Shown piece by piece: positions 10,020-60,107 of a DNA stretch of 64,000 bases (its first letter is position 1; every line of letters begins with the position of its first letter). Under the pieces are notes generated by a model. That model did not search any database. It saw nothing but the letters and a program-made list of their open reading frames with translations, and was not told where the DNA came from. The stretch lies in the IMG/VR virus record IMGVR_UViG_3300025133_000019; one strand, written 5' to 3'. The DNA is from a virus (Duplodnaviria; Heunggongvirae; Uroviricota; Caudoviricetes). Position numbers and translations under genes: made by a program.

Positions 10020-11480
10020 TTACACAGCCTCCAAAAGTTTAAGCTCCGCAGAAAAATAAAAATTTTCCTTTAAAACTTCTGCCCAACTATACGGGCGAGG
10101 GTCTCGGCTCGTCAAAGTCGATAATCGCTCTCTATTTTGATTTAAGTACTTCTTAACCAAAATAGAAAGGATGCTAAATCTTGATAAATAATTGGAACTA
10201 ATCTCAGGTAAAGAACTTCTTCCCTTCACAGATCTAGCTCCATTGATATCAGCATGGGATTTTAATCCACACGCCAGACATCGGAATCTATCCTGATTCC
10301 TATTCTTTTTATCTAGGTAACCGCATTTATTACACTCTTGAGAAGTATAAGCTGGATTAACTTTTGTAATTTTTATTCCTAGCAGTTCCTGGACCGAGTT
10401 TAATTTGTCCAATAAAACTTTCTTTCCATAATTATTATAGAGTCTTTTATAACTCCTTCCTGCTTTTATTTGTCTTAAATCTAAGTCTTCTATTACAATT
10501 TCTGAGGGGTTATGAATTTCTATTAATCTGTTTACAATCCTGTTAACCTCATTTTTAATTAGGGATCTCGACTTTCTAATCAAGGTTTCTAGTCTGTCAG
10601 AATTTAAGGACATTCCAATTTTATTTCTCTCTTTTCGAATTCTGTTGATTTCTTCGATTACTTCTTTTAACTTGGAAATAAATTTAGTGCCGAAGGCACC
10701 TCCTTCGGAGTCAAACACGAAATCATCTCGGAACCCTAAGTCAAGTCCAATCACTTTCCCTGAAGAATTGTAAGGCTCTTTTGCCAAATCCTTTACCAAC
10801 TTGAACTCAAGATTTCCATTTCTTTTCAAGTGGATTTGTGTAATAGCTTTCAAACTGCCTTGTCTAGAATTGAAATAAGGATTTACATTTAAAGGAATTC
10901 GAACGGGTTTATTTTTTGTTGAGGTAGAAACTCTTAGCCAGTAGTCGAATGTAGTAGCGCCCAATTCCTGTTTGCTATGAATTTCACAAACTTTATGATC
11001 CAAAACCATATTTATTCTCTTGAAACTAGGCTTACTGACTCGTTTCAGGGCTTGATGAAAGATCTTTCTGCTTGTTTTCAAATTTTCTGTAGAGTAGAAA
11101 ACCCCTTTTTCCGAAGTGAACGCAGGAGAGGACCAAAATTTATATTTATTAATCGTATAAAGTATTCTCTTTTGTTCTTTAGGTAAATTAGATTTTGAAA
11201 TGGTTTTTCTTATAGAGTTCTGTAAATTTGAAATAAAACTTTGAAGTTGGCTTACAACTTGCGCTCTTATTGTTTGCGTGTAACGAGAGGAGAGATCTGT
11301 TTTAATTCTATGCCCAGAAAAGTTTTTAAACTTGTTAAATTTAGAATATCTGAAAAAATAGTTCCATTGATCACGGGATACATCCTCTGCGGTGGCCCGA
11401 TAACTAGGGAACACCCTTTTAATTTTTTCTAGTTTAACTTGATTAGAAAAATTTTTTAATCCGTAAGCTCTAAGTGCCAT
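10020..11480 (-). mobile_element. tnpB: TnpB-family RNA-guided endonuclease (IS200/IS605-like orfB), no tnpA in window
   Basis: RuvC-I IGLDLG, RuvC-II IVIEDL, Zn ribbon YTSQECNKCG..FRCLACG, RuvC-III HADINGA. Confidence 0.88.
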
Positions 11481-11554
11481 TATTAATACCTAATATTATA
11501 TCATAACATTCTAAAATACTCCATTAAACTTAGTGATTGTTATCGCAGTTCACA

Positions 11555-16313: not shown

Positions 16314-16373
16314 ACACTAACACAAGATATAAAAATTATTGCTAATAGATTTATGGTATGATACGATTAAGTT

Positions 16374-17588
16374 ATGAAGATAAAAACACGTTTCGCTCCA
16401 AGTCCTACAGGATTTCTACACCTAGGCTCGATTAGAACAGCCTTGATTAACTATTTGTACGCCAAATCCCAAGGCGGAGACTTCTATTTAAGGATAGAAG
16501 ACACTGATCAAACCCGATTAGTCCAGGGAGCTACAGAAGAAATTCAATCCGTGTTAACCAGCTTTGGGATGAGCACGGATTGTCTACGCATTCAAAGCGA
16601 GAATTTGGAGTCTTACAAGTATTGGGCTAACAAGTTAGTAGAAACAGGTTGGGCATACATAAAAGACGGAGCTGTTTTTGCTGTTTCCGATCAGGTGAAT
16701 AAAAATATTATTCACGATGACATACTAAAAGGCCAAATAACTTTGCCAGCTCAAGAAGACGACTTTGTTATTATAAAGGCTGATGGTTATCCAACATATC
16801 ATTTTGCCAGCGTTGTTGACGATCACTCAATGGGTATAACTCATGTATTCAGAGGAGCAGAGTGGTTAACCTCTTTGCCTAAGCATCTACTCTTGTACGA
16901 TTACTTGAAATTTGATTCTAAGCCTAAATTCGGTCATTTATCACTAATCCTAGATTCTGACGGTAAAAAATTATCAAAACGTCACCCAGGATCAGACTTG
17001 GGAGAGTACTTAGATCAAGGATTCTTGCCCTCTGCCTTAATAAACTACTGTTTACTCTTGGGAAATTCTAATAGAAGTAAAGAGATTTTTGGTTTAAAAG
17101 ATGAACTTAAGGATTTCGATATAACTAAGTTTAGCTCCAATAATCCCATGCTAGACAGGGATAAATTAGTGTATCTCAATTTTCAGCACATAAAGAAATT
17201 AGATAAGGATTCTTTCCTGGACCTGAGTTCAATTTTTTATGGGGGAAGTCTTCCTGATAAACTCAAAGAATTTTTAACGGAAGAGAGACATAGAGTAAAA
17301 GTTCTAAGTGATATAAAGAGGTTTTCTGACTATACTAAATCTTTTGTGCTTGCGCCTAGACCGTGTGACCATGATATTCTAAGTATTGTTCGTGATTACT
17401 ATACCTCCGAGTATCCTGCCAGTATAAAAAAGGCTGTTCAGCATTGTAACAAAACGACACACTACTGTATTACCGTGATTTACAAATCAGTAAGACGAGC
17501 TTTGTGTAATGAGGAAGATGGTCCGGATTTGGACAATATTTGTGATTTGTTGGGTCAACCTGAAGTAGTTAAAAGGCTTACTCTGTAG
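16374..17588 (+). CDS. gltX: glutamyl-tRNA synthetase (compact)
   Basis: TRFAPSPTGFLHLGS, LRIEDTDQTR, YPTYHFASVVDD, RGAEW, KLSKR. Confidence 0.93.
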   Translation: MKIKTRFAPSPTGFLHLGSIRTALINYLYAKSQGGDFYLRIEDTDQTRLVQGATEEIQSVLTSFGMSTDCLRIQSENLESYKYWANKLVETGWAYIKDGAVFAVSDQVNKNIIHDDILKGQITLPAQEDDFVIIKADGYPTYHFASVVDDHSMGITHVFRGAEWLTSLPKHLLLYDYLKFDSKPKFGHLSLILDSDGKKLSKRHPGSDLGEYLDQGFLPSALINYCLLLGNSNRSKEIFGLKDELKDFDITKFSSNNPMLDRDKLVYLNFQHIKKLDKDSFLDLSSIFYGGSLPDKLKEFLTEERHRVKVLSDIKRFSDYTKSFVLAPRPCDHDILSIVRDYYTSEYPASIKKAVQHCNKTTHYCITVIYKSVRRALCNEEDGPDLDNICDLLGQPEVVKRLTL

Positions 17589-22657: not shown

Positions 22658-22747
22658 TAAAATTTAACCTTCTTACTTGATTTCTGTTACCCTTTGAGTT
22701 ATAGTACTAAAAACTTGTACTAATTTTTAAAATCAAAGGTATAACAA

Positions 22748-23770
22748 ATGACCCTTTTTACACACGAGTACATCTGGCTAGACGGATGCGAGACTCAATT
22801 ATTGAGGTCCAAAACAAGAATTTCTAGTGCTCCGGTTCCTAAAGTATGGAATTATGATGGAAGTTCCACAAAGCAAAGTGAAGGGGACTCCGCTGACTTA
22901 GTTCTAGTTCCTACGACTACGGTTAGAGACCCTCTTAGAGAAAACGGATTTTTGACTGTTTGTGAAGTCATGGAGCAAGACGGAGTTACTCCCCATGAAA
23001 CTAACACACGAGCACTATTGAGTAATACAGTAGACAGAGCCGAAAAACTAGAACCCTGGATAGGATTCGAACAAGAATATACTTTGTTTGATATGGATAA
23101 GAACCATGTTCACGGATGGCCTGAACGAGGATTCCCTGGACCTCAAGGACCTTATTATTGTGGTGTCGGACCAGCTCAAATACGGGGTCGTCAGTTCGTA
23201 GAAGCTCATATGAAAGCTTGTATGGACGCTGGACTTATGATTTACGGGGTCAACGCTGAAGTTATGATGTCTCAGTGGGAATTTCAAATAGGACCACGAG
23301 GAGTCAAGGGAGACAAATCAGACTTACTCACCATTTGTGACCACCTTATCCTGGCTAGATGGTTGCTATTTCGACTCGGAGAAGATTTCGAAGTTGAGCC
23401 CTCCTTGGACGTTAAGCCTATTAAAGGAGATTGGAATGGTGCCGGGATGCACACTAATTTCTCAATAGCTCCGATGAGAGAAGACGGTGGCCTCGAAATT
23501 ATAAAAGAACTTATACCAGTTCTTGAATCAAGGCACGAATCTCATATCTCATCATACGGAGAAGGTCTTCACGAAAGGTTGACAGGTCTCCACGAAACCT
23601 GTAGTATAGATGAGTTTAAGAGCGGAGATTCTAACCGTGGAGCTTCTATTAGAATTCCTAATCATGTAGCCCAAGACGGTAAAGGATATTTTGAGGATAG
23701 AAGGCCAGGAGCCAACGCTAATCCTTATGATGTGGCGAGACTTATTTTTGAGGCTTGCTTGGAAGGATAA
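22748..23770 (+). CDS. glnII: glutamine synthetase type II
   Basis: EYIWLDG..LRSKTR, WNYDGSST, GFEQEY, GPQGPYYCGVG, WNGAGMHTNFS, RLTGLHET, YFEDRRPGANANPY; 340 aa. Confidence 0.93.
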   Translation: MTLFTHEYIWLDGCETQLLRSKTRISSAPVPKVWNYDGSSTKQSEGDSADLVLVPTTTVRDPLRENGFLTVCEVMEQDGVTPHETNTRALLSNTVDRAEKLEPWIGFEQEYTLFDMDKNHVHGWPERGFPGPQGPYYCGVGPAQIRGRQFVEAHMKACMDAGLMIYGVNAEVMMSQWEFQIGPRGVKGDKSDLLTICDHLILARWLLFRLGEDFEVEPSLDVKPIKGDWNGAGMHTNFSIAPMREDGGLEIIKELIPVLESRHESHISSYGEGLHERLTGLHETCSIDEFKSGDSNRGASIRIPNHVAQDGKGYFEDRRPGANANPYDVARLIFEACLEG

Positions 23771-26192: not shown

Positions 26193-26221
26193 TTGACACT
26201 GATACACAATATGAGTATGAA
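26193..26221 (+). promoter_or_regulatory. sigma70-type promoter of the Ile/Met tRNA unit
   Basis: TTGACA-17 nt-TATGAA. Confidence 0.6.
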
Positions 26222-26240
26222 ACTCAAAGGAACCTCTTAC

Positions 26241-26267
26241 ATAGCTATGATTATTATGCGGTTGTAG
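26241..26267 (+). CDS. Ile/Met-rich leader peptide (I A) M I I M R L; start uncertain (26211, 26241 or 26247)
   Basis: ATA GCT ATG ATT ATT ATG CGG TTG TAG; AAAGGA at 26226-26231; stop lies in antiterminator segment. Confidence 0.65.
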   Translation: MAMIIMRL

Positions 26268-26296
26268 GGGTTTTTGTTTCTCCTTTGGTTAAAGCT

Positions 26297-26327
26297 AAAG
26301 ACCCCTCATCTCCGAGGGGTCTTTTTT
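26297..26327 (+). terminator. attenuator terminator before tRNA-Ile
   Basis: AAAGACCCCTC-ATCTCC-GAGGGGTCTTT plus T run. Confidence 0.9.
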
Positions 26328-26333
26328 ATATTC

Positions 26334-42963: not shown

Positions 42964-43167
42964 AACTAAGGAGATAAAATGGGTTTCTTGACTTTTTCAA
43001 CACTAATAGCATTATCATTTCATGGGTTTACAACTACTTGTATGTACACCATTTTTAAAGCGGGGGGGGTTCTCTTCTTTAGACCCCAATTTTATTTTTC
43101 TGGGCTGTGTAATAGCTTCAGCATTACTAACACACACTATCTGGAATATTCAAGTTAAAGACAAGTA

Positions 43168-44430
43168 ATGGGATTTCTAACTCTTAGTAGTGATAATCCA
43201 AATTTTTCTTTTGCTATAAAAAAGAATCCCGAAACCGGAATGCAGATAAAAAAATGCAGACGTGGGTTCATGTATGGGTGGTATTCAGATCCTTGTAGTT
43301 ATAACATCTATTTTAGGGAGGGGCTAAATTCAGTTTCTTTTAAACGGGATAAGCACGAAGATTTTGAATACATAAATACTACTAGATTTTCAAGCCCTCT
43401 TTTCGTTATTCAAGCTATTTCAGAGTTCTTTAGGCATAACACCAGAGAAATTGTTAGCGAAGACACTGAAGGCACGAACACAGTCAATATCAATATGATT
43501 TCGGTGAATGTTCCGTTGTACCTAAAATTCTTTTCCGAGCAATTCGACAACCTAGAAGTTAGTCATGCCGAGCTTGGACCTAAGAATTTCTCGGTTACAA
43601 TGAAATCCGCAGGTACTTTACACCGAGTCTTAAATTTGGCTCAGTTATTTGCTTTCTTTGTTATCCTTTCTAACCGAGATTACATTGAACTTAATAACGA
43701 TATTGTTACCAAGTACATGGAATGTTTGAATGCGCTAACTCCTCCTTACTTTATGACCTATTTGTTTAAAAAGAATTGTCTAAGAAGCAGAGGAGCTTTT
43801 GATAAAGAAAAGGCTGTGTTAGAGCAGAATCCTTTGTACGATTCTATGACCTTAAAATTTGGGGGTACTCTGCAAAACCGGATAGACGCTATTCTGGAAA
43901 GAACTTGTTTAGACGAATCTATTCTAGACATAGGGTGTGGTGAAGGAAACTATATTAGAGAGTTCTCAAAGCGTAATAAAGAAGTTAGATACATTGCTGT
44001 CGATACTGACGAAGAGACCTTAGAAAGGGCTAAAAAGGTCATTAGAAACAGAAATCTTGAGAATGTCTTGGTTTCCAGTAACCTAGATATAGTTATAGCG
44101 ACTGGAATCCCTGAAAACACAGAAGTTCTGTTAACCGAAGTTATTGAACACATGTCAGAACAAGAAGCCCAGGAATTGGTGAACAAGATTCTCGGTTTAA
44201 AAAACGTTAAGAGCTTGTTAATAACCACCCCTAATTTTGAGTTTAATCGGTTTTATCCTATGGACACGAAATTCAGGCATGATGACCATAAATTTGAGTT
44301 TACTCAAGAGCAATGGAGAGTGTTTATGGAACAATTCGAGCGCTACGGAGAAGTCGAGTACTTTAATATAGGTGATGAGGTTAACGGAATCCCCACTAGT
44401 CTAGGAGCTAAGATAACTAGGAAGGTTTAG
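43168..44430 (+). CDS. hen1: Hen1-like RNA 3'-terminal 2'-O-methyltransferase
   Basis: ILDIGCGEG SAM motif, EVIEH, ITTPNFEFN, FRHDDHKFEFT; adjacent to Pnkp. Confidence 0.85.
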   Translation: MGFLTLSSDNPNFSFAIKKNPETGMQIKKCRRGFMYGWYSDPCSYNIYFREGLNSVSFKRDKHEDFEYINTTRFSSPLFVIQAISEFFRHNTREIVSEDTEGTNTVNINMISVNVPLYLKFFSEQFDNLEVSHAELGPKNFSVTMKSAGTLHRVLNLAQLFAFFVILSNRDYIELNNDIVTKYMECLNALTPPYFMTYLFKKNCLRSRGAFDKEKAVLEQNPLYDSMTLKFGGTLQNRIDAILERTCLDESILDIGCGEGNYIREFSKRNKEVRYIAVDTDEETLERAKKVIRNRNLENVLVSSNLDIVIATGIPENTEVLLTEVIEHMSEQEAQELVNKILGLKNVKSLLITTPNFEFNRFYPMDTKFRHDDHKFEFTQEQWRVFMEQFERYGEVEYFNIGDEVNGIPTSLGAKITRKV

Positions 44431-44776: not shown

Positions 44777-44814
44777 CCTTGACACATAAAGAATAAAAAT
44801 AGTACAATAAAAAC

Positions 44815-47385
44815 ATGGAAAATACAATTACAGTTGAACCAAATACTATTTTTTTATGTATTGGACCCACTAATTCTGGTAAAACTACTTTTATCAAGAA
44901 TTTGATTGCTAATAATAAAAAGAAGCTGGAGGGACTAAATGTTCAAATACTGGGGTCTGACCAAATAAGAAAAGAGCTTCTTGGGGAGGATTTGTTTAGA
45001 TATGATCCTAGAATGCTTGAAGCTAGCGATGCTACGTTCAGAGTATTTGAAGCTAAGTTAAAAGCGTTAACACAATACCCTATTAACGCAGACATTATTT
45101 TTCTTGATTGTACTTCTTTGCATCCTGACTTCAGGAAATTCGTAAGTAACACTGCAAAGGAAAGTTGCTACAATCTACAAGCCCTAGTTTTCAACTACAA
45201 AGACACCGAAGACCACATGAGGTATGCTCACGAAGGCTATGAACATCTAGTATACAGGAATCTCAAGAAGTTTAGAACAACAGTACTTCCCACTATTAAA
45301 GCCAAAGATTTTGATGGTCTAACTAAAATAAGGTCTAAAGACTTTGGTGACTGGGAACTCGGTCTAAAGAACTTTGATTTAGCTGAGAGTTACAAATTAG
45401 ATCCTGAGGTACATTATAGTATTATCGGAGATATCCATGGGTGCTTCGATGAATTTCAAGAACTGCTTTTAAAGCTCGGAAGTAAAATTGAGAATGGTAT
45501 TCTCATTCCTCCTGAAAACAGAAAGTTTATTAGTATAGGTGACCTGATTGATAAAGGCCCGGAAACTAAAAAAGTAGTAGACTTTGTTCTCAGAAATATC
45601 CAGCATTTCATTATTATCAGAGGAAATCACGAATACGGTAATTACCAGTATTTGACTGGTCAAATGAAGAAAGGGACCTGGACCCCTAAGTTTATTAATG
45701 AGTGGTTCGATACAATTAGGCTAGCCGAGCAAGATCCGGATTTAAAACAGAAACTACTTGAGCTAGTCGAATACTCTGCTCCTTTTGCGAGTCACCCGAA
45801 TTTTATCTGTACTCATGTTCCGTGTAAATCTAAATTTTTAGGTAGAGTCTCTAAAAAAGGGGTTAACGGTCAGGTAAGATGGAGCTATCCACATAGAGAA
45901 GATAGAACACTCGAAGAATACGCAGAACACCTTAAAGAGACCTTAAGCTACTTGAAAGAAGAGTCAGATTTTAATCTGCCTTATCATATCTTTGGTCATA
46001 TCGCTACTGCTAATACCATAAGGTATTCCAAAAAAATTGGTATTGACTTAGGGTGTTATAAGGGAGGAAAACTCCAAGCCGTAACATTTTACTCAGGAAG
46101 TAAAAAGCCTGAATTCTGTGAAGTAGAAAGTAAGCAACCCAAAGACCTTGAGGGATTACCAGATTTGACTCCTGCGCCTGTTCCGGTGGAACTAAATTTA
46201 GAAGATCTAGATCCTAAGGACATGGTTAAGATGAGGAAAATTTGCGCTAATAAAATAAATTTTCTTAGCGGTACGGTATGCCCAGCAGACAAAGATACTG
46301 AAACTAACGAACTAGAATCTCTAGAAAAAGGTTTGAACTACTTTAAAGACAACGGAGTAAACAAGGTTCACCTGCAAACCAAGTATATGGGAAGTAGAGG
46401 TACTGTGTACTTAACTCCAGATAATGAAACAAGTTTCGTTATTAGCAGAAACGGGTTCAAAATAGGATACCTAGATTTCAGCGATCAGTTCTCGATTCTT
46501 AGGGACAGGGTTAAAGAGTATTTCGACTGCGGTGCAGAAATAGTTATTATAGATGCCGAAATCATGCCTTGGGCTGCTATGGGTAAAGGGTTAATAGAAA
46601 AAGAGTTCGGGATAGTAGGAACAGGGTTAGCTTCAGAGCAAGACATATTAAAAAATTCCGGGTTTTACGAACAATTAGATTCTATGTCTTGCTCAACAGA
46701 ATTTATTGGCTACCTAGAAGACAAGAAAACTACTAGTAAAAAGGATCTTGTTGAGAAGTACGGACACTCTAAATTTTCGACTTACCGTGCTCTAGACGAA
46801 TCAGAGATTATAGAATCTTATACCGAGGACTTTTTGATTCAGCAGTATTTTGATCAACTAAAACTTTATGGAGAAGAAGGCGATTTGCATATAGAACCCT
46901 TCTGTCTGTTAAAAGTAGTTTATCCTGATAGTGAAACCACATTTTTTACAGAAACCAGTAAATCTATGTTTCAAAAAGTAAACCCCGAAGGTCGTAACTT
47001 AGAGGTTGACTTTAGCGATCCAGATTACCTGGAGAAAGCCCAAGCATTTTATGACGAACTTACTTTAAATATGGAAGGTATAGTGATTAAGCCAGAGATC
47101 ATGTGGACCCCTGGAATTGCTCCTTATATGAAAGTCAGAAATCCTCGATACCTCTCCATTATCTATGGGTATGACTATCAGAAAGACACTAAATTCCAAA
47201 GACTCATCAGGCAAAAGAATATCGCCAGAAAACTGAGGGCAAGTATCCAGGAGTACGAAACTGGAAAAAGTCTGTTAGAAGTCCCTTGGAAAGAAATAAA
47301 CAGTGAAAACACTAGGTATATTGGTTTGGTCTCTAAATTCATGAGGCTTGAGAAAAAAGCTGAATCCTTAGATCCTAGATTATGA
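44815..47385 (+). CDS. pnkp: polynucleotide kinase-phosphatase-ligase (bacterial Pnkp)
   Basis: GPTNSGKTT kinase; IIGDIHGC/IGDLIDKG/RGNHE phosphoesterase; TKYMGSR, EGIVIKP, KVRNPRYLSIIYG ligase. Confidence 0.93.
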   Translation: MENTITVEPNTIFLCIGPTNSGKTTFIKNLIANNKKKLEGLNVQILGSDQIRKELLGEDLFRYDPRMLEASDATFRVFEAKLKALTQYPINADIIFLDCTSLHPDFRKFVSNTAKESCYNLQALVFNYKDTEDHMRYAHEGYEHLVYRNLKKFRTTVLPTIKAKDFDGLTKIRSKDFGDWELGLKNFDLAESYKLDPEVHYSIIGDIHGCFDEFQELLLKLGSKIENGILIPPENRKFISIGDLIDKGPETKKVVDFVLRNIQHFIIIRGNHEYGNYQYLTGQMKKGTWTPKFINEWFDTIRLAEQDPDLKQKLLELVEYSAPFASHPNFICTHVPCKSKFLGRVSKKGVNGQVRWSYPHREDRTLEEYAEHLKETLSYLKEESDFNLPYHIFGHIATANTIRYSKKIGIDLGCYKGGKLQAVTFYSGSKKPEFCEVESKQPKDLEGLPDLTPAPVPVELNLEDLDPKDMVKMRKICANKINFLSGTVCPADKDTETNELESLEKGLNYFKDNGVNKVHLQTKYMGSRGTVYLTPDNETSFVISRNGFKIGYLDFSDQFSILRDRVKEYFDCGAEIVIIDAEIMPWAAMGKGLIEKEFGIVGTGLASEQDILKNSGFYEQLDSMSCSTEFIGYLEDKKTTSKKDLVEKYGHSKFSTYRALDESEIIESYTEDFLIQQYFDQLKLYGEEGDLHIEPFCLLKVVYPDSETTFFTETSKSMFQKVNPEGRNLEVDFSDPDYLEKAQAFYDELTLNMEGIVIKPEIMWTPGIAPYMKVRNPRYLSIIYGYDYQKDTKFQRLIRQKNIARKLRASIQEYETGKSLLEVPWKEINSENTRYIGLVSKFMRLEKKAESLDPRL

Positions 47386-48334: not shown

Positions 48335-48363
48335 TTGACACTAATAGTTATTTGGTGTAGTAT
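48335..48363 (+). promoter_or_regulatory. sigma70-type promoter of the Gln/Cys/Leu tRNA operon
   Basis: TTGACA-17 nt-TAGTAT, same context as 2658. Confidence 0.75.
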
Positions 48364-48459
48364 TAGTACATAAGACTGAAGATTACAGGGTTACCGTTAT
48401 TTTGAGACACACCCCCTGCTATCACTCACTGGGTCTTATATTTTTTAAAGGATATAGAA

Positions 48460-48534
48460 ATGATTACAAGAAACGTTTTACAACAGTTATGTTTGCTCCA
48501 GCTAAGTATGCTGGGAGGTAAGGGCGTTTCGTAA
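48460..48534 (+). CDS. Leu/Gln/Cys-rich leader peptide MITRNVLQQLCLLQLSMLGGKGVS
   Basis: AAAGGA SD at 48447-48452; TTA CAA CAG TTA TGT TTG CTC CAG CTA; 3' half covers antiterminator segment. Confidence 0.8.
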   Translation: MITRNVLQQLCLLQLSMLGGKGVS

Positions 48535-48553
48535 AAACATTGCTATAACTACA

Positions 48554-48598
48554 AAAAAAGCCCCTTGTTTTCCAGATAGGAAGCAAGGGGCTTTTTTT
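48554..48598 (+). terminator. attenuator terminator before tRNA-Gln
   Basis: AAGCCCCTTGTTTTCC-AGATA-GGAAGCAAGGGGCTT plus T run. Confidence 0.9.
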
Positions 48599-48605
48599 GT
48601 GCCCT

Positions 48606-48677
48606 AGAGCCTTGGTGTAATTGGTAACACAGCAGACTTTGACTCTGCTATTCTGAGTTCGAATCTCAGGGGCTCTG
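48606..48677 (+). tRNA. tRNA-Gln(TTG)
   Basis: GCAGA-CTTTGAC-TCTGC; G73. Confidence 0.92.
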
Positions 48678-48684
48678 TATTGTT

Positions 48685-48756
48685 GACACGGTGTCCGAGT
48701 GGTTAGGGAGATGCCTGCAAAGCATCTTTACGTGAGTTCGAATCTCACCCGTGTCT
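48685..48756 (+). tRNA. tRNA-Cys(GCA)
   Basis: GATGC-CTGCAAA-GCATC; U73. Confidence 0.92.
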
Positions 48757-48759
48757 TAT

Positions 48760-48830
48760 AGAGGTATAGTGTAATGGTAACACGACAGACTCTGAATCTG
48801 TGGCTTCTGGTTCGACTCCAGATACCTCTG
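48760..48830 (+). tRNA. tRNA-Gln(CTG)
   Basis: ACAGA-CTCTGAA-TCTGT; G73. Confidence 0.92.
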
Positions 48831-48833
48831 CAT

Positions 48834-48917
48834 GGCGGTGTGTTGGAATTGGTATACATCTGAGTTTTAGAAACTCAGGCCCTTAAGGGATTGAGAGTTC
48901 GAATCTCTCCACCGTCA
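48834..48917 (+). tRNA. tRNA-Leu(TAG)
   Basis: TGAGT-TTTAGAA-ACTCA, long variable arm, A73. Confidence 0.9.
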
Positions 48918-48923
48918 TTACAT

Positions 48924-49008
48924 GGCTCCGTAGCCGAATTGGAATAGGCACTAGAGTTAAAATCTAGCGGACATCGTCCATTTGTGGGTTCAATCCCCAC
49001 CGGAGCTA
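48924..49008 (+). tRNA. tRNA-Leu(TAA)
   Basis: CTAGA-GTTAAAA-TCTAG, long variable arm, A73. Confidence 0.88.
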
Positions 49009-49023
49009 TTTTATAGTATATAA

Positions 49024-49112
49024 GCTGATGTGGCGGAATTGGTATACGGTACTTCCTTTCGGGAAGGAGACCTATTAATACGGTCACGAAGGTTCGAACC
49101 CTTCCATCAGCT
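49024..49112 (+). tRNA. atypical class II tRNA-like RNA: Leu-type body, TTC at anticodon position
   Basis: GCTGATG/CATCAGC acceptor, GGAATTGGTATAC D loop, ACTTC-CTTTCGG-GAAGG arm, 20-nt variable region, U73. Confidence 0.7.
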
Positions 49113-49118
49113 CTTTAT

Positions 49119-49200
49119 GCCAACGTGGTGAAACTAGAAGACACGCTAGACCTAGAATCTAGCGCCTTCGGGCATGCGAGTTCGACCCTCGCCGTTGGTA
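49119..49200 (+). tRNA. tRNA-Leu(TAG), second copy
   Basis: CTAGA-CCTAGAA-TCTAG (C33), variable arm, A73; D loop lacks GG. Confidence 0.8.
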
Positions 49201-49206
49201 CTACAT

Positions 49207-52798: not shown

Positions 52799-54780
52799 GC
52801 ACGATAGAACAAGAAATATCTAGACTAATTCAAAAAGAATCAAAAATATTGGCTAGTTCTAAAAGAGAGATCGAGAGAGCTAGACTTAAAATTAAAAATG
52901 ATCCTTATAGTTTTAGGTATCTTTCCGACGCATTAAAAAATAATTTAGAGCTAGCTCGGTATGCGGTTGAGGAAGACCCCACTAATTTCAAGCATGCTCC
53001 TGACGAATTAAAAAAAGATTTAAAATTATCTGAACAGGCAGTTAAAAAAGATTCTAGTAATTTTGGTCATGCTCCCTATGAATTAAGAAACAATTTAGAA
53101 CTCGCTACATGGGCAGTTAAAGACGCTCCTTATAATTTTCATTCTGCTTCTGAGGAATTGAGAGGAAATTTAGAATTTGCTACGTGGGCGGTTGAAATAT
53201 CTCCAGGTAATTTCAAGTATGTTCCTGACAAGTTAAAAAATAATCTAGAATTCTCTACGTGGGCGGTTGAGATATCTCCTAGTAATTTTGAACACGTTCC
53301 CTATGAATTAAGAAATAATTTAGAACTGGCTAAGTTTGCGGTTAGGGAGGACTCCTTTAGTTTCCAACATGCTTCTAAAGAATTAAGAGGAAATTCAGAG
53401 TTTGCTAGATATGCGGTTGAGATAAAGCCCACTGATTTCAGTTATGTCTCTGAGGAATTAAGGCATAACACAGAATTTGCTAAATGGGCGGTTGAAAAAA
53501 ATTATAGTAATTTCAAGTATGTTTCTGAGGAATTAAAAAACGATTTAGAGTTCGCTACAGATATGGTTGAAAAAAACCCTACTAATTTCCAATATGTTTC
53601 TGATGATTTAAAAAATAATTTTGACCTAGCTAAGTTTGCGGTTGGAGAAGACTCAGCGAATATCACAAATGTTTCTGACGAACTGAAGAACAAGTTGCCC
53701 GACTCCCCTTTTCATGACCCTCATAAATCTCCGGAGCAAGTAGAAATCTCTAAGAATACTCCAGCTTCCTTATATGATTTAGTAAGGTATCTAAAGAAAA
53801 ACAATCTTGAATTCACGGATTGGGTTATCCTAGAAAAACTTGATTTAACAGAAGACAAACACACAAATAATTTAATCCGGGAATATAATCAAACTCATGT
53901 ATCTCCTCTTGTTAAGAAATTTGTTCAAAACCTGGATAAAAATCTATCAAAAAAAGAACAGCAACAAAAAATTAAGGAATACCGTGGAAAATTAAATTCT
54001 GAATTCAAAATTCCTGTGGAGTTTATAGTTGAATCTCGAAGTTTTCACTCCGAGAAAATTGTACCCGAAAATTTAAAACAGCCCAAAGATGGCTTATCTG
54101 AAATAGAAAAACGGTTCAAGGATACCAAAACTCTAGACATCAGTGATCCAGAAATAAGTGAAGCTATAAAAGAATTCAGAAATATAATCCTAAACAAAGG
54201 AGTGACTAAGCATCATACTTGGTCCGGAGATCAAAAAATATTTCCTAGCACAAATCACGTTATGATGCTTGTTATCCCTAAAGATATTATTCCTCCAAGA
54301 TTATATGAACTTAATAAGATCAGGGTAGACCATGCAATTTCTAAGAGTGAGCACCCATTTATAAAAGGAAACTTGACAATTGGATGGGTAAGATATACAC
54401 TAGGAAAAGACATTACTGGCAACAAAGATAACGAAGATGTTTGGATTGATGAGATTCAAACAGATTTCTCCTCTGTATTCGGAAAAGAAAATATGAAGCA
54501 AGTTTTTCCTATTGAAAAAATCTCTTATCTTTTGGTCAAAAAGTCCATTAAATTTAGAAGAGCTAAGGGATTTGAGAAGATTTACATTCCCACTTTTGAA
54601 TTATCAAGTCATTTATATGACAGAGAGGAGTCGTATGTACCTCCTTATACATCTATTCCTCAAAAACTGAGGTTTAAAAGAACGGAATTGAATGATTTCC
54701 ACAAAAAAGTTGATGGAAACCAAGTTTGGGTTCTAGCTAAGAAAAAACTAGACTCAGGATATACTTTTGATTGGAGTTAA
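52795..54780 (+). CDS. DUF4116-like repeat protein with WIDEIQ domain (member 4)
   Basis: Ten 25-aa repeats, then NLTIGWVRYT, VWIDEIQTDF, VWVLAKKKLDSGYTFDW. Confidence 0.82.
   Translation: MSTIEQEISRLIQKESKILASSKREIERARLKIKNDPYSFRYLSDALKNNLELARYAVEEDPTNFKHAPDELKKDLKLSEQAVKKDSSNFGHAPYELRNNLELATWAVKDAPYNFHSASEELRGNLEFATWAVEISPGNFKYVPDKLKNNLEFSTWAVEISPSNFEHVPYELRNNLELAKFAVREDSFSFQHASKELRGNSEFARYAVEIKPTDFSYVSEELRHNTEFAKWAVEKNYSNFKYVSEELKNDLEFATDMVEKNPTNFQYVSDDLKNNFDLAKFAVGEDSANITNVSDELKNKLPDSPFHDPHKSPEQVEISKNTPASLYDLVRYLKKNNLEFTDWVILEKLDLTEDKHTNNLIREYNQTHVSPLVKKFVQNLDKNLSKKEQQQKIKEYRGKLNSEFKIPVEFIVESRSFHSEKIVPENLKQPKDGLSEIEKRFKDTKTLDISDPEISEAIKEFRNIILNKGVTKHHTWSGDQKIFPSTNHVMMLVIPKDIIPPRLYELNKIRVDHAISKSEHPFIKGNLTIGWVRYTLGKDITGNKDNEDVWIDEIQTDFSSVFGKENMKQVFPIEKISYLLVKKSIKFRRAKGFEKIYIPTFELSSHLYDREESYVPPYTSIPQKLRFKRTELNDFHKKVDGNQVWVLAKKKLDSGYTFDWS
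52909..53696 (+). repeat. coding tandem repeat, ~75 nt x 10
   Basis: Unit NF.(Y/H)(V/A)S.EL(K/R)NN.EFA.(W/Y)AVE..P. Confidence 0.85.
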
Positions 54781-54781
54781 T

Positions 54782-55798
54782 ATGAGCACAACACATTTCG
54801 TAGGCATAGACTTAGGAACAAGTCGTACCAGCATAATAACAAACTCTGGAGCTAAGCATACCATTGAAACTGTGGTGGGCCATGCCAAAGATGCCATAAC
54901 TAAAAAAAGGTTTAACAAAGACTATTTAATAGGGGAAGAAGCCAGAAAAAACAGGCTTGCTCTTAATATGGTAGAACCTTTATCTGGCGGGGTTATCGAA
55001 GATGACGATAAGAGTAAAGAAGCCACTAAACTTATACTTAAGCATGTTGTTGCTAAAGCCATTCCAAATAAAAAGAAGGAAGATAAAATTTACGCTATTA
55101 TAGGGGTTCCTGCTTTAGCCAGTACCCAATCAAAAAAGGCTATTCTTGAAGTTACCAAAGGATTTATAGATAAAGTTATGGTAATAAGTGAGCCCTTTGC
55201 TGTAGCTTATGCTTTAGACAGACTATACGAAACCATTGTAATTGATATTGGTCACGGCAGTGTTGACTTAGCAAGGCTAGAAGGTACTTTTTGCACAAAA
55301 GAGAACCAGATAACCATTGACCAAGCTGGAAAGTACCTGGATAAATGTATAACCGATGCTATTCTAGAAAAGTATCCTGATGTACAAGTAACACCTCAAA
55401 TAGTGAAAAAGATCAAAGAGAAACACGGATATATAAGCAATCTTAGTGATCCTATTGAAATCGTGTTAACCAATAAAGGTAAACCCGGTAAATACGATAT
55501 AACCGAAATAATGAAAGAGTCCTGTCTTAAGTTAGCACAGCCTATATGCGATGCTGTTCAATCCTTGATATCAGAAGCAGACCCGGAGTTCCAAGAAACT
55601 TTTAGAAACAATATCCTGATAGCAGGAGGAGGTTCCAGGTTAAAAGGAATTGACAAAGCTATTGAGGACTGCTTAGTAGAATATGGCGGAGGAGAGGCAG
55701 AGTGTGTTCAAGATGCTGAGTTCTGCGGAGCCGAGGGAGCTTTTAAACTGTGTTTTGAAATGGACGAAGATCTCTGGGATCAACTCAACGAACTTTGA
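54782..55798 (+). CDS. MamK-like bacterial actin
   Basis: GIDLGTSRT, IIGVPA.AS, SEPF.V.Y.LD.L..TI..DIG.G, AG.Y.D..I..AILE.YP, NI..AGGGSR, W.QL match MamK along its length as I recall it. Confidence 0.8.
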   Translation: MSTTHFVGIDLGTSRTSIITNSGAKHTIETVVGHAKDAITKKRFNKDYLIGEEARKNRLALNMVEPLSGGVIEDDDKSKEATKLILKHVVAKAIPNKKKEDKIYAIIGVPALASTQSKKAILEVTKGFIDKVMVISEPFAVAYALDRLYETIVIDIGHGSVDLARLEGTFCTKENQITIDQAGKYLDKCITDAILEKYPDVQVTPQIVKKIKEKHGYISNLSDPIEIVLTNKGKPGKYDITEIMKESCLKLAQPICDAVQSLISEADPEFQETFRNNILIAGGGSRLKGIDKAIEDCLVEYGGGEAECVQDAEFCGAEGAFKLCFEMDEDLWDQLNEL

Positions 55799-58972: not shown

Positions 58973-59206
58973 ATGAAGCTTACAGATCATCAACTAAAAG
59001 CACTGAGAAGAATAAAAAGAGGGATAGAGAAAGCTAAAAAGCTAGATCCTGGTTATACCGGGGGACTCCCTCTAGAACATTCGGTATTTCTTAATGCGTC
59101 AACCCTTAAATCTCTGTTAAAAAGAGGATTAATACAACTGGATAGATCCAGTGTTAATCATTCTGTTTACGGGGAAGTAAAATTCTCAATCCATATGACC
59201 CCTTAG
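58973..59206 (+). CDS. small winged-helix-like protein; TAG stop lies inside the tRNA
   Basis: MKLTDHQLKAL...TLKSLLKRGLI. Confidence 0.55.
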   Translation: MKLTDHQLKALRRIKRGIEKAKKLDPGYTGGLPLEHSVFLNASTLKSLLKRGLIQLDRSSVNHSVYGEVKFSIHMTP

Positions 59207-59268
59207 CTCAATGATAGAGCGTCGGCTTCTAAACCCGAAGGTTGAGAGTTTGATTCTCTCAGGGGTCA
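59197..59268 (+). tRNA. tRNA with Arg(TCT)-like body; standard spacing gives CTA anticodon (possible amber suppressor)
   Basis: GACCCCT/AGGGGTC, GCTC/GAGC D stem, G-TCGGC-TTCTAAA-CCCGA-AGGTT, T loop TTTGATT. Confidence 0.65.
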
Positions 59269-59295
59269 TAAAAAATTTGGAAGCAAAATTAACAG

Positions 59296-59324
59296 TTGAC
59301 TAATAGTAAGTTTTTATGTATACT
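59296..59324 (+). promoter_or_regulatory. sigma70-type promoter
   Basis: TTGACT-17 nt-TATACT. Confidence 0.75.
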
Positions 59325-59333
59325 AAATATAAG

Positions 59334-59435
59334 ATGGAAAATACATAGACTAAATACAAACCAGAAGAAACAAACTTCACCCGTTGCGTTGAGGACTTAT
59401 TATTAATAGTTCTACCAACGGGTTTTTTAATGTAG
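59334..59435 (+). CDS. leader ORF MENT(TAG)TKYKP...GFLM(TAG)
   Basis: TAG at codon 5 (59346-59348); readthrough frame spans the terminator. Confidence 0.5.
59379..59428 (+). terminator. leader terminator
   Basis: ACCCGTTG...CAACGGGT plus T run, inner AGGACT/AGTTCT pairing. Confidence 0.75.
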
Positions 59436-59443
59436 GGAAAATA

Positions 59444-59776
59444 ATGACGGACACATAGAACCATAGTTATATTTATGTCGTGATTAGACACGATCTAACC
59501 CCGGCACAAATAGCGGTACAAGCTTCTCACGCTTGTATAGAATCCACACGATCTTACCTTAACGATGAGGATCAACATCCACATTTAGTTTTAGTAAAGG
59601 TCAAAAATGAATTCCGTTTGATTCGTTTAATAGATGAATTAAACGAATCAGGTATTAAATTCAGGAACTTTATAGAGCCTGATTTAAACTACTCTTTAAC
59701 AGCTCTGGCAACAAAGCCTATCCCAGCAAATTCACCTAAACGAGACTTCTTCAAGAAGTTCTCACTATATGTCTAA
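59444..59776 (+). CDS. PTH2-like peptidyl-tRNA hydrolase-family protein with in-frame TAG at codon 5
   Basis: ATG ACG GAC ACA TAG AAC CAT AGT TAT ATT TAT GTC GTG; YIYVVIRHDL..AQIAVQASHA, LVLVKV, FIEPD....TALA. Confidence 0.7.
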
Positions 59777-59789
59777 TAAAGGAGACGTA

Positions 59790-60107
59790 ATGAAAGATCC
59801 ACGTATTACAAACAACATTAGAATCACAAAGCAACAACTAAAAGACCTAGCTTCTGAGATAAGATCTGTTAAGCCAGATCTCAAGAATCCTGCTATAAAG
59901 CAATGGATTACGCAGAACAAGCTTTTTCACCTTAGCTACAATTACAGGCATTTGCATATCGCTTATTGTGAGGTAAGGGGCAAGACCCGAGAGCAGATTG
60001 AAAGTCCTGGGGAAGATAACTTCCCTTATGAAAAAAAGATTGACGAGCACAAAGAGGCTATTTTAAATGGGGATCTTACTCCGGTAAAAGAGAAGGCGGT
60101 GGCATGA
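59790..60107 (+). CDS. hypothetical phage protein
   Basis: AAAGGAG SD; YRHLHIAYCEVRGKTREQIE motif. Confidence 0.6.
   Translation: MKDPRITNNIRITKQQLKDLASEIRSVKPDLKNPAIKQWITQNKLFHLSYNYRHLHIAYCEVRGKTREQIESPGEDNFPYEKKIDEHKEAILNGDLTPVKEKAVA

Follow-up and report, generated by a model that had tools for sequence, protein, structure and literature searches.

The leaders of pyrBI, where the leader open reading frame (ORF) runs through the attenuator, of trp and his, and of tnaC, where termination at a stop codon is the sensed event, all place a promoter-proximal short ORF before an intrinsic terminator and let the position of the ribosome decide whether the hairpin forms. Within a coding sequence, the conserved premature in-frame UGA of prfB, the gene for release factor 2 (RF2), senses its own decoding in a translation-factor gene (PMC12421855), and TAG is reassigned to Gln ('code 15') in crAss-like, Lak and jumbo phages that encode suppressor tRNAs, a phage tRNA reading the stop inside phage coding sequences with a proposed function in the timing or regulation of translation (bioRxiv 10.1101/2021.08.26.457843, PMC9523058, PMC13037316). 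A synthetic suppressor-tRNA feed-forward 'leak dampener' uses amber codons to make a gene depend on a co-expressed suppressor (PMC7969014), and Iyer et al. proposed that the PTH2 proteins (peptidyl-tRNA hydrolase family) of jumbo phages act in ribosome rescue alongside RNA repair (PMC7824862). The subject of this analysis is a PTH2-like gene with an in-frame TAG at codon 5, located in 64,000 nucleotides of DNA from a large Caudoviricetes phage (IMG/VR record IMGVR_UViG_3300025133_000019; this whole stretch is referred to below as the window). The reading that is favoured on balance, from comparison of sequences, is that this gene is controlled by a two-step gate that depends on a suppressor tRNA encoded directly upstream.

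The locus would combine two known kinds of control, nonsense suppression and leader-ORF attenuation, the case for the translational gate being strong and that for the attenuator moderate. Recoding in the code-15 phages extends to many genes, most of them late, and the stop has largely lost its use as a terminator, whereas the window phage has a standard code with just a leader and a gene as visible targets, and the stop always lies in the first few codons and co-varies with the neighbouring tRNA. A phage tRNA complementary to the stop, together with an in-frame stop inside a conserved coding sequence, was found for the PTH2-like gene only; reassignment of a stop in many genes, with that stop rare as a terminator, was not seen in the window. 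Escape from the prfB stop is by +1 frameshifting, with proven product feedback, whereas the PTH2-like gate would use in-frame suppression by a dedicated tRNA. The pyrBI, trp, his and tnaC leaders sense UTP, a sense-codon tRNA and tryptophan, whereas the proposed leader would sense UAG suppression versus termination and has no antiterminator hairpin. The leak dampener was engineered; the PTH2-like gate is natural and widespread in phages, with an extra transcriptional layer in the clade of the window. The survey of jumbo-phage PTH2 concerns the same family in the same kind of phage, and the window also encodes Pnkp and Hen1, but that survey mentions neither an in-frame stop nor a link to a suppressor tRNA (PMC7824862). 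A full-text literature search found no published description of the PTH2-like gate or of its tRNA partner.

The elements of the locus are listed by position in the window.

59197-59268, + strand: amber suppressor tRNA gene, tRNA(CUA) (ARAGORN; Rfam tRNA 64.9 bits, E 1.4e-13).
59296-59324, + strand: sigma-70-type promoter, TTGACT (59296-59301) and TATACT (59319-59324) with a 17-nt spacer, 10/12 matches.
59334-59348, + strand: near-leaderless mini-ORF ATG GAA AAT ACA TAG (M-E-N-T-amber), TAG at 59346-59348.
59349-59444, + strand: readthrough frame of the leader, with TAG at 59433-59435, GGA AAA, and TAA at 59442-59444.
59379-59428, + strand: predicted intrinsic terminator, hairpin 59379-59423 and T-run 59423-59428 (folding free energy, dG, -18 kcal/mol, z -4.5).
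59434-59438, + strand: Shine-Dalgarno (SD)-like AGGGA, 5 nt upstream of ATG 59444.
59444-59776, + strand: PTH2-like gene, 110 codons, in-frame TAG at codon 5 (59456-59458), stop TAA at 59774-59776.

A preliminary description, made from the letters of the window, had listed a near-leaderless ORF, a terminator, the TAG codons and the gene, and all of these lie at the coordinates it gave. The PTH2-like gene is carried on a 347-kb metagenome contig and the region is present in two further assemblies; the contigs, from three different samples, agree letter for letter over 59190-59800, and therefore the TAG codons are not assembly errors. The sequencing runs listed with the region are marine DNA runs, with no RNA run among them, and a DNA-level search of GenBank phages with the region gave no match. 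The leader ATG (59334) lies 9 nt past the -10 element and has no SD, as the description of M-E-N-T-TAG as near-leaderless had it, and the TAG at codon 5 of the leader and that at codon 5 of the gene (M-T-D-T-TAG) do share the ACA-TAG-A context that it had reported. From the leader, the readthrough frame is uninterrupted across the hairpin as far as TAG 59433-59435, and its final TAA overlaps the gene ATG (59444). The leader frame thus spans the hairpin as in pyrBI, only given UAG readthrough. No RNA family was found by Rfam at the leader and terminator unit.

The gene opens ATG ACG GAC ACA TAG AAC CAT AGT TAT ATT TAT GTC GTG, the last codon being GTG 59480, which public gene calls choose as the start of a 98-aa product (P0003). 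The SD-like motif precedes ATG 59444, and GTG 59480 has none. The protein matches the Pfam family PTH2 (PF01981) with 30.4 bits against a cut-off of 23, over residues 10-97 and profile positions 3-104 of 115, and has no match in NCBIfam. An AlphaFold2 model (predicted local distance difference test, pLDDT, 91.5) has the alpha-beta fold of Pth2/Bit1, the top 13 Foldseek matches in the PDB all being Pth2/Bit1 proteins (template modelling score 0.6-0.75, probability 1.00). Strand beta1 of the model comprises residues 8-15 and GTG 59480 is residue 13, so that a start there would delete most of the strand, in agreement with the earlier claim that this start truncates the conserved strand. Archaeal Pth2 presumably owes its catalysis to the GKGK-loop Lys and the DAG-motif Asp. 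Aligned by profile with 2zv3 and 24bt, the PTH2-like family is without the GKGK loop and its Lys and has an invariant E-P-D in place of DAG; it retains the Q..HA motif and has new invariant residues (H29, E33, H47, E78 and D80; H45 is nearly invariant). The missing loop, the replaced DAG and the additional invariant residues suggest that the substrate is possibly not ordinary peptidyl-tRNA. The protein, with its Pth2 fold, most likely hydrolyses ester-linked (peptidyl- or aminoacyl-) tRNA.

The arrangement recurs widely. From IMG/VR and metagenome contigs, 154 loci were gathered and analysed by script, 104 of them non-redundant. An early in-frame stop, 1-14 codons past an ATG, is present in 85/104 (77 TAG, 5 TGA, 3 TAA), and most of these ATGs are preceded by an SD-like motif. 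Among the gated loci, 32 have the stop at codon 3, 14 at codon 4 and 12 at codon 5, and distant homologs on other huge-phage contigs (42-46% identity) read M-x-H-TAG followed by the conserved strand. An ordinary start is found in 16/104, including three loci (L151, L153 and L157) in which an ordinary ATG is combined with a single internal TAG; this TAG occupies the same position in all three, 37 codons past the Q..HA motif and with a purine next, and a tRNA(CUA) lies just downstream of each. Loci with an early stop or this internal TAG together number 88/104. Judged by these comparisons, the annotated starts in public gene calls are wrong for the PTH2-like family. One relative, P0006, had appeared to be ungated with Gln at the gate position and was discarded, as its source had translated TAG as Q. 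In L161 and L142 (about 1958-2803) the PTH2-like domain follows an N-terminal part of ~180 residues, and the longer ORF opens with a four-codon prefix and TAG (MSFT-TAG and MKLR-TAG).

A suppressor tRNA gene lies within 2.5 kb of 49 gated loci (ARAGORN), often 36-130 nt upstream, and its anticodon fits the type of gate stop in 49/49, with zero mismatch. A TAG gate is accompanied by a CUA anticodon in 42 loci, by both CUA and UUA in one and by UUA in one, a TGA gate by UCA in three, and a TAA gate by UUA in two. Through wobble, UAG is read by the ochre anticodon UUA as well. The gates of TGA and TAA type lie dispersed over a maximum-likelihood tree, with at least 14 changes of gate state and at least six switches of stop type, and the anticodon co-switches in the five of these that have a flanking suppressor tRNA, as in the sister pairs L077 (TAA/UUA) versus L107 (TAG/CUA) and L171 (TGA/UCA) versus L168 (TAG). 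The stop is followed by a purine in 82/85 gated loci, whereas purines make up 56% of the first codon positions in these genes (p = 1.5e-17); in E. coli, suppression is favoured by a purine in this position. In a 373-kb phage with 61 tRNAs (G001), the sole tRNA(CUA) lies outside the main tRNA cluster, 7.7 kb from the gated gene. A search of 185,579 species genomes gave three loci only, all on contigs of metagenome-assembled genomes and each combining a TAG gate with a tRNA(CUA). That the early stop is decoded, with the neighbouring suppressor tRNA as the decoder, is thus well supported by comparison of sequences.

The acceptor stem of the window tRNA(CUA) has G1-C72, A2-U71 and C3-G70, with discriminator A73, and its anticodon stem is 4 bp through a C31-C39 mismatch (C31-U39 in the L126 homolog). 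Positions 31 and 39 are unpaired in 24/77 suppressor tRNAs, compared with 13/183 other tRNAs of the fetched loci. The tRNA was aligned with the suppressors of L126 and G001, and its identity elements were compared with the phage's own tRNAs; it is dissimilar to the phage tRNA-Gln, and the phage glutamyl-tRNA synthetase (GluRS) gave no clear link to its charging. Upstream, a 77-aa ORF (58973-59206) ends with a TAG (59204-59206) that falls within the tRNA(CUA) gene, where readthrough would add merely 12 codons; the same 77-aa ORF likewise lies upstream of the tRNA in L126.

The transcriptional step can be compared in the closest relatives. Only two other lineages in the protein database exceed 70% protein identity, represented by P0005 (74%; loci L002-L009 and L192) and P0004 (79%; L010 and L126), and both retain the full order of parts upstream of the called GTG start, so that the layout of a leader-ORF attenuator, with promoter, short leader ORF, intrinsic terminator and gene in that order, is found in three lineages. 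The promoter stands at the same position with a 17-nt spacer (11/12 matches in L002, 12/12 in L126), the leader ATG follows 6-10 nt past the -10 element without an SD, and the mini-ORFs read MENT-TAG (L002) and MKFT-TAG (L010/L126). A hairpin and U-run follow in the same place (dG -13.8, z -6.4 in L002; dG -18 kcal/mol, z -4.9 in L010). Then come AAGGAG at the SD position, ATG-x-x-ACN-TAG-AAY-CAY and (S)Y(I/V)YVV. Conservation in the alignment of the three lineages (A2) is restricted to blocks at exactly the -35 and -10 elements, ATG..ACN-TAG, the T-run and the SD, the remainder having diverged. The codons between TAG and GTG vary synonymously (Ser AGT versus TCG, AAC/AAT, CAT/CAC), indicating that this stretch is translated. 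The genes upstream differ among the three lineages, and the promoter-leader-terminator unit is intact in each; no further promoter was found between leader and gene in L002 and L126. In the window the prefix ATG-x(1-11)-TAG is absent from every other long ORF, and this, with the recurrence of the layout in the relatives, argues for more than chance. Conservation of both TAG codons in homologs had been set as a test by the preliminary description; these two lineages retain both, and most of the distant homologs retain the gene TAG. The hairpin that it took for a terminator is likewise kept with its U-run in all three lineages, with unrelated stem sequences, which is consistent with a predicted function in termination.

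In the three lineages the readthrough frame of the leader stays free of stops over 28, 42 and 42 codons, whereas each of the other two frames has 2-5 stops (joint probability of the open frames ~0.002, from dinucleotide shuffles). In L002 and L010 the distance from leader ATG to gene ATG is 141 nt, in frame, and the next stop is the gene's own TAG. The second TAG at 59433, to which readthrough had been proposed to carry the ribosome, is therefore present in the window and is not a conserved element, as the leader frame of the relatives runs into the gene ATG and TAG. The 42 intervening codons are dissimilar as protein between the relatives, so that the frame is kept open without encoding a conserved peptide. 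Letter for letter, the window leader ATGGAAAATACATAG agrees with the start of the L002 gene, which suggests that the leader arose by duplication of the gated start. In L002 the mini-ORF, UAG included, is folded into a long hairpin (2827-2917; z -4.9 for the whole leader) with the stretch that directly precedes the terminator, and no comparable hairpin was found in the window or in L010.

In the favoured two-step gate, the strong promoter would first give an almost leaderless RNA beginning AUG GAA AAU ACA UAG. Were release factor 1 (RF1) to act at the leader UAG, the ribosome would depart, the hairpin and U-run (59379-59428) would form, and the polymerase would halt before the gene. Were tRNA(CUA) to decode the UAG instead, the ribosome would trail the polymerase and cover the 5' arm of the hairpin, and transcription would proceed. 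In the second step, translation would start from the gene's own SD at AUG ACG GAC ACA UAG, where suppression would again be needed for a protein containing the first beta-strand. The enzyme would thus probably be made only while tRNA(CUA) overrides the stop, its dose being tied to the activity of the suppressor tRNA, and with two gates in series output would scale approximately with the square of suppression efficiency, giving a threshold. The transcriptional (attenuator) gate, kept in three lineages, is plausible. Of the earlier proposal that transcription and translation both need UAG readthrough, the translational half is thus upheld by the comparison of homologs, the transcriptional half resting on a layout shared by three lineages. 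That proposal had the gate opened by weak RF1 or by the adjacent suppressor; the match of stop type and anticodon points to the suppressor tRNA, and not weak RF1, as the controlling input. As a guess, the enzyme may clear peptidyl-tRNA from readthrough or drop-off, recycle the suppressor, or limit the suppressor in a negative feedback of the prfB kind. A possible, if doubtful, extension is a closed homeostat, in which the enzyme would deacylate the suppressor tRNA or release peptidyl-tRNA(CUA), its suppression-dependent synthesis would keep UAG readthrough at a fixed and tolerable level in a phage in which UAG still serves as a stop, and the sensor would have been duplicated into a leaderless leader.

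Several observations weigh against the two-step gate. The double gate is confined to three lineages: the leader-plus-terminator layout was sought in the other 82 gated loci and is confined to the clade of the window (a TGA candidate for such a leader, in L147, was dropped as it sits inside an upstream gene). Thirteen homologs are ungated, and 7/13 of these still adjoin a tRNA(CUA), so that tRNA and protein can be partners in the absence of the gate and would cooperate beyond it. In the L002 lineage no suppressor tRNA was found in 12.8 kb of DNA, reaching 10 kb upstream and 2.7 kb downstream. A conserved antiterminator structure was sought in the three leaders and none was found, leaving ribosome occlusion as the sole mechanism on offer, and antitermination would depend on that occlusion and on efficient leaderless initiation. 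The hairpin of the window contains a weak (9/12) promoter-like site, and the terminator could simply close the upstream operon. A suppressor should carry a cost, since TAG terminates about a quarter of the phage genes. Finally, the chemistry of the enzyme may differ from that of canonical Pth2.

Among the alternatives, the one that survives best, although unlikely, retains the translational gate and takes the promoter, mini-ORF and terminator for a unit that yields its own short RNA (a small RNA or a drop-off minigene resembling bar), with the gene transcribed through leakage of the terminator. Few-codon mini-ORFs provoke drop-off of peptidyl-tRNA, as do the bar minigenes of lambda, a strong promoter and a strong terminator stand just 100-135 nt apart, and the mini-ORF of L002 is buried in its long hairpin. 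However, neither an untranslated RNA nor a four-codon minigene needs an open frame across the terminator, yet such a frame is kept in three lineages, and the leader and the gene carry the same M-x-x-T-TAG at a unit that matches no Rfam family.

It is improbable that the terminator only closes the upstream operon, comprising the 77-aa ORF and the tRNA, with the promoter and leader a functionless inheritance and the gene expressed through leakage or from an unrecognised phage promoter. The terminator lies 110 nt past the tRNA and its hairpin contains the promoter-like site, as this reading would have it, but the conserved blocks of A2 coincide with the elements of the unit from the -35 to the SD, the promoter scores reach 11/12 and 12/12 in the relatives, and the unit is intact despite differing upstream genes.

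More improbable still is that the UAG codons sense the level or inhibition of RF1, through near-cognate readthrough, instead of the phage suppressor tRNA. Suppression and termination compete at one codon, so that the level of RF1 must modulate the gate, and the L002 lineage is without a nearby tRNA(CUA); nevertheless, stop and anticodon match in 49/49 loci and co-switch on the tree, and the TGA and TAA gates would require other factors.

That the phage uses TAG as a sense codon throughout, as in code 15, with both TAGs ordinary codons, is very improbable. A phage tRNA(CUA) is present, and large phages commonly show recoding of this type (bioRxiv 10.1101/2021.08.26.457843; PMC13037316). Against this, under the standard code TAG, TGA and TAA each terminate long ORFs of the window, TAG terminating 17/64 of those with 120 codons or more, where readthrough would extend the ORF by a median of 5 codons and never by a long stretch; ORFs lengthen no more when TAG is read as sense than when TGA is, an early TAG is absent from all other genes of the window, and the gate is found at codons 3-8 in very diverse homologs. 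Hardly any credence is given to a start at GTG 59480 or a pseudogene without recoding, with the mini-ORFs due to chance, since, although gene callers do report the 98-aa product, the SD precedes ATG 59444 and not GTG, codons 6-12 are conserved as protein, beta1 would be cut and 85 loci share the arrangement.

The window (37% GC, 13 tRNA genes) is that of a large phage with genes for translation and RNA repair and for a UvrD-type helicase, as indicated by Pfam and NCBIfam.

10020-11489, - strand: TnpB-like protein with a Cas12f1-like TNB domain (Pfam/NCBIfam).
16371-17588: bacterial-type GluRS, 405 aa against a 470-position model (TIGR00464, 339 bits against a cut-off of 290).
22745-23770: GlnII-like glutamine synthetase, scoring below its own cut-off.
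43159-44430: Hen1, N-terminal domain and methyltransferase (Pfam/NCBIfam).
44803-47385: Pnkp, with kinase, phosphatase and ligase (Pfam/NCBIfam).
54752-55798, + strand: MreB/actin-like protein (Pfam/NCBIfam).

The Hen1/Pnkp genes, a bacterial RNA-repair pair, lie directly upstream of a tRNA cluster (48605-49201). By reading of the sequence, units of a promoter, a short ORF and a hairpin with U-run precede two tRNA clusters, at 26193-26330 and 48335-48605, the leader at 26193-26330 being M-I-I-M-R-L, terminated by TAG.

Suppressor tRNAs are common in large phages of standard code, where their targets are unclear, and this locus supplies a specific, conserved target. It suggests a natural, portable 'tRNA key and stop-codon lock' for one gene, which in the clade of the window is set twice, on transcription and on translation, and would thereby extend leader-ORF attenuation to the decoding of a stop codon. 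The tRNA, the 15-nt sensor and the attenuator are small natural parts on offer. If the homeostat with its duplicated sensor is true, the leader would be the first natural attenuator that reads a stop codon by means of a dedicated tRNA.
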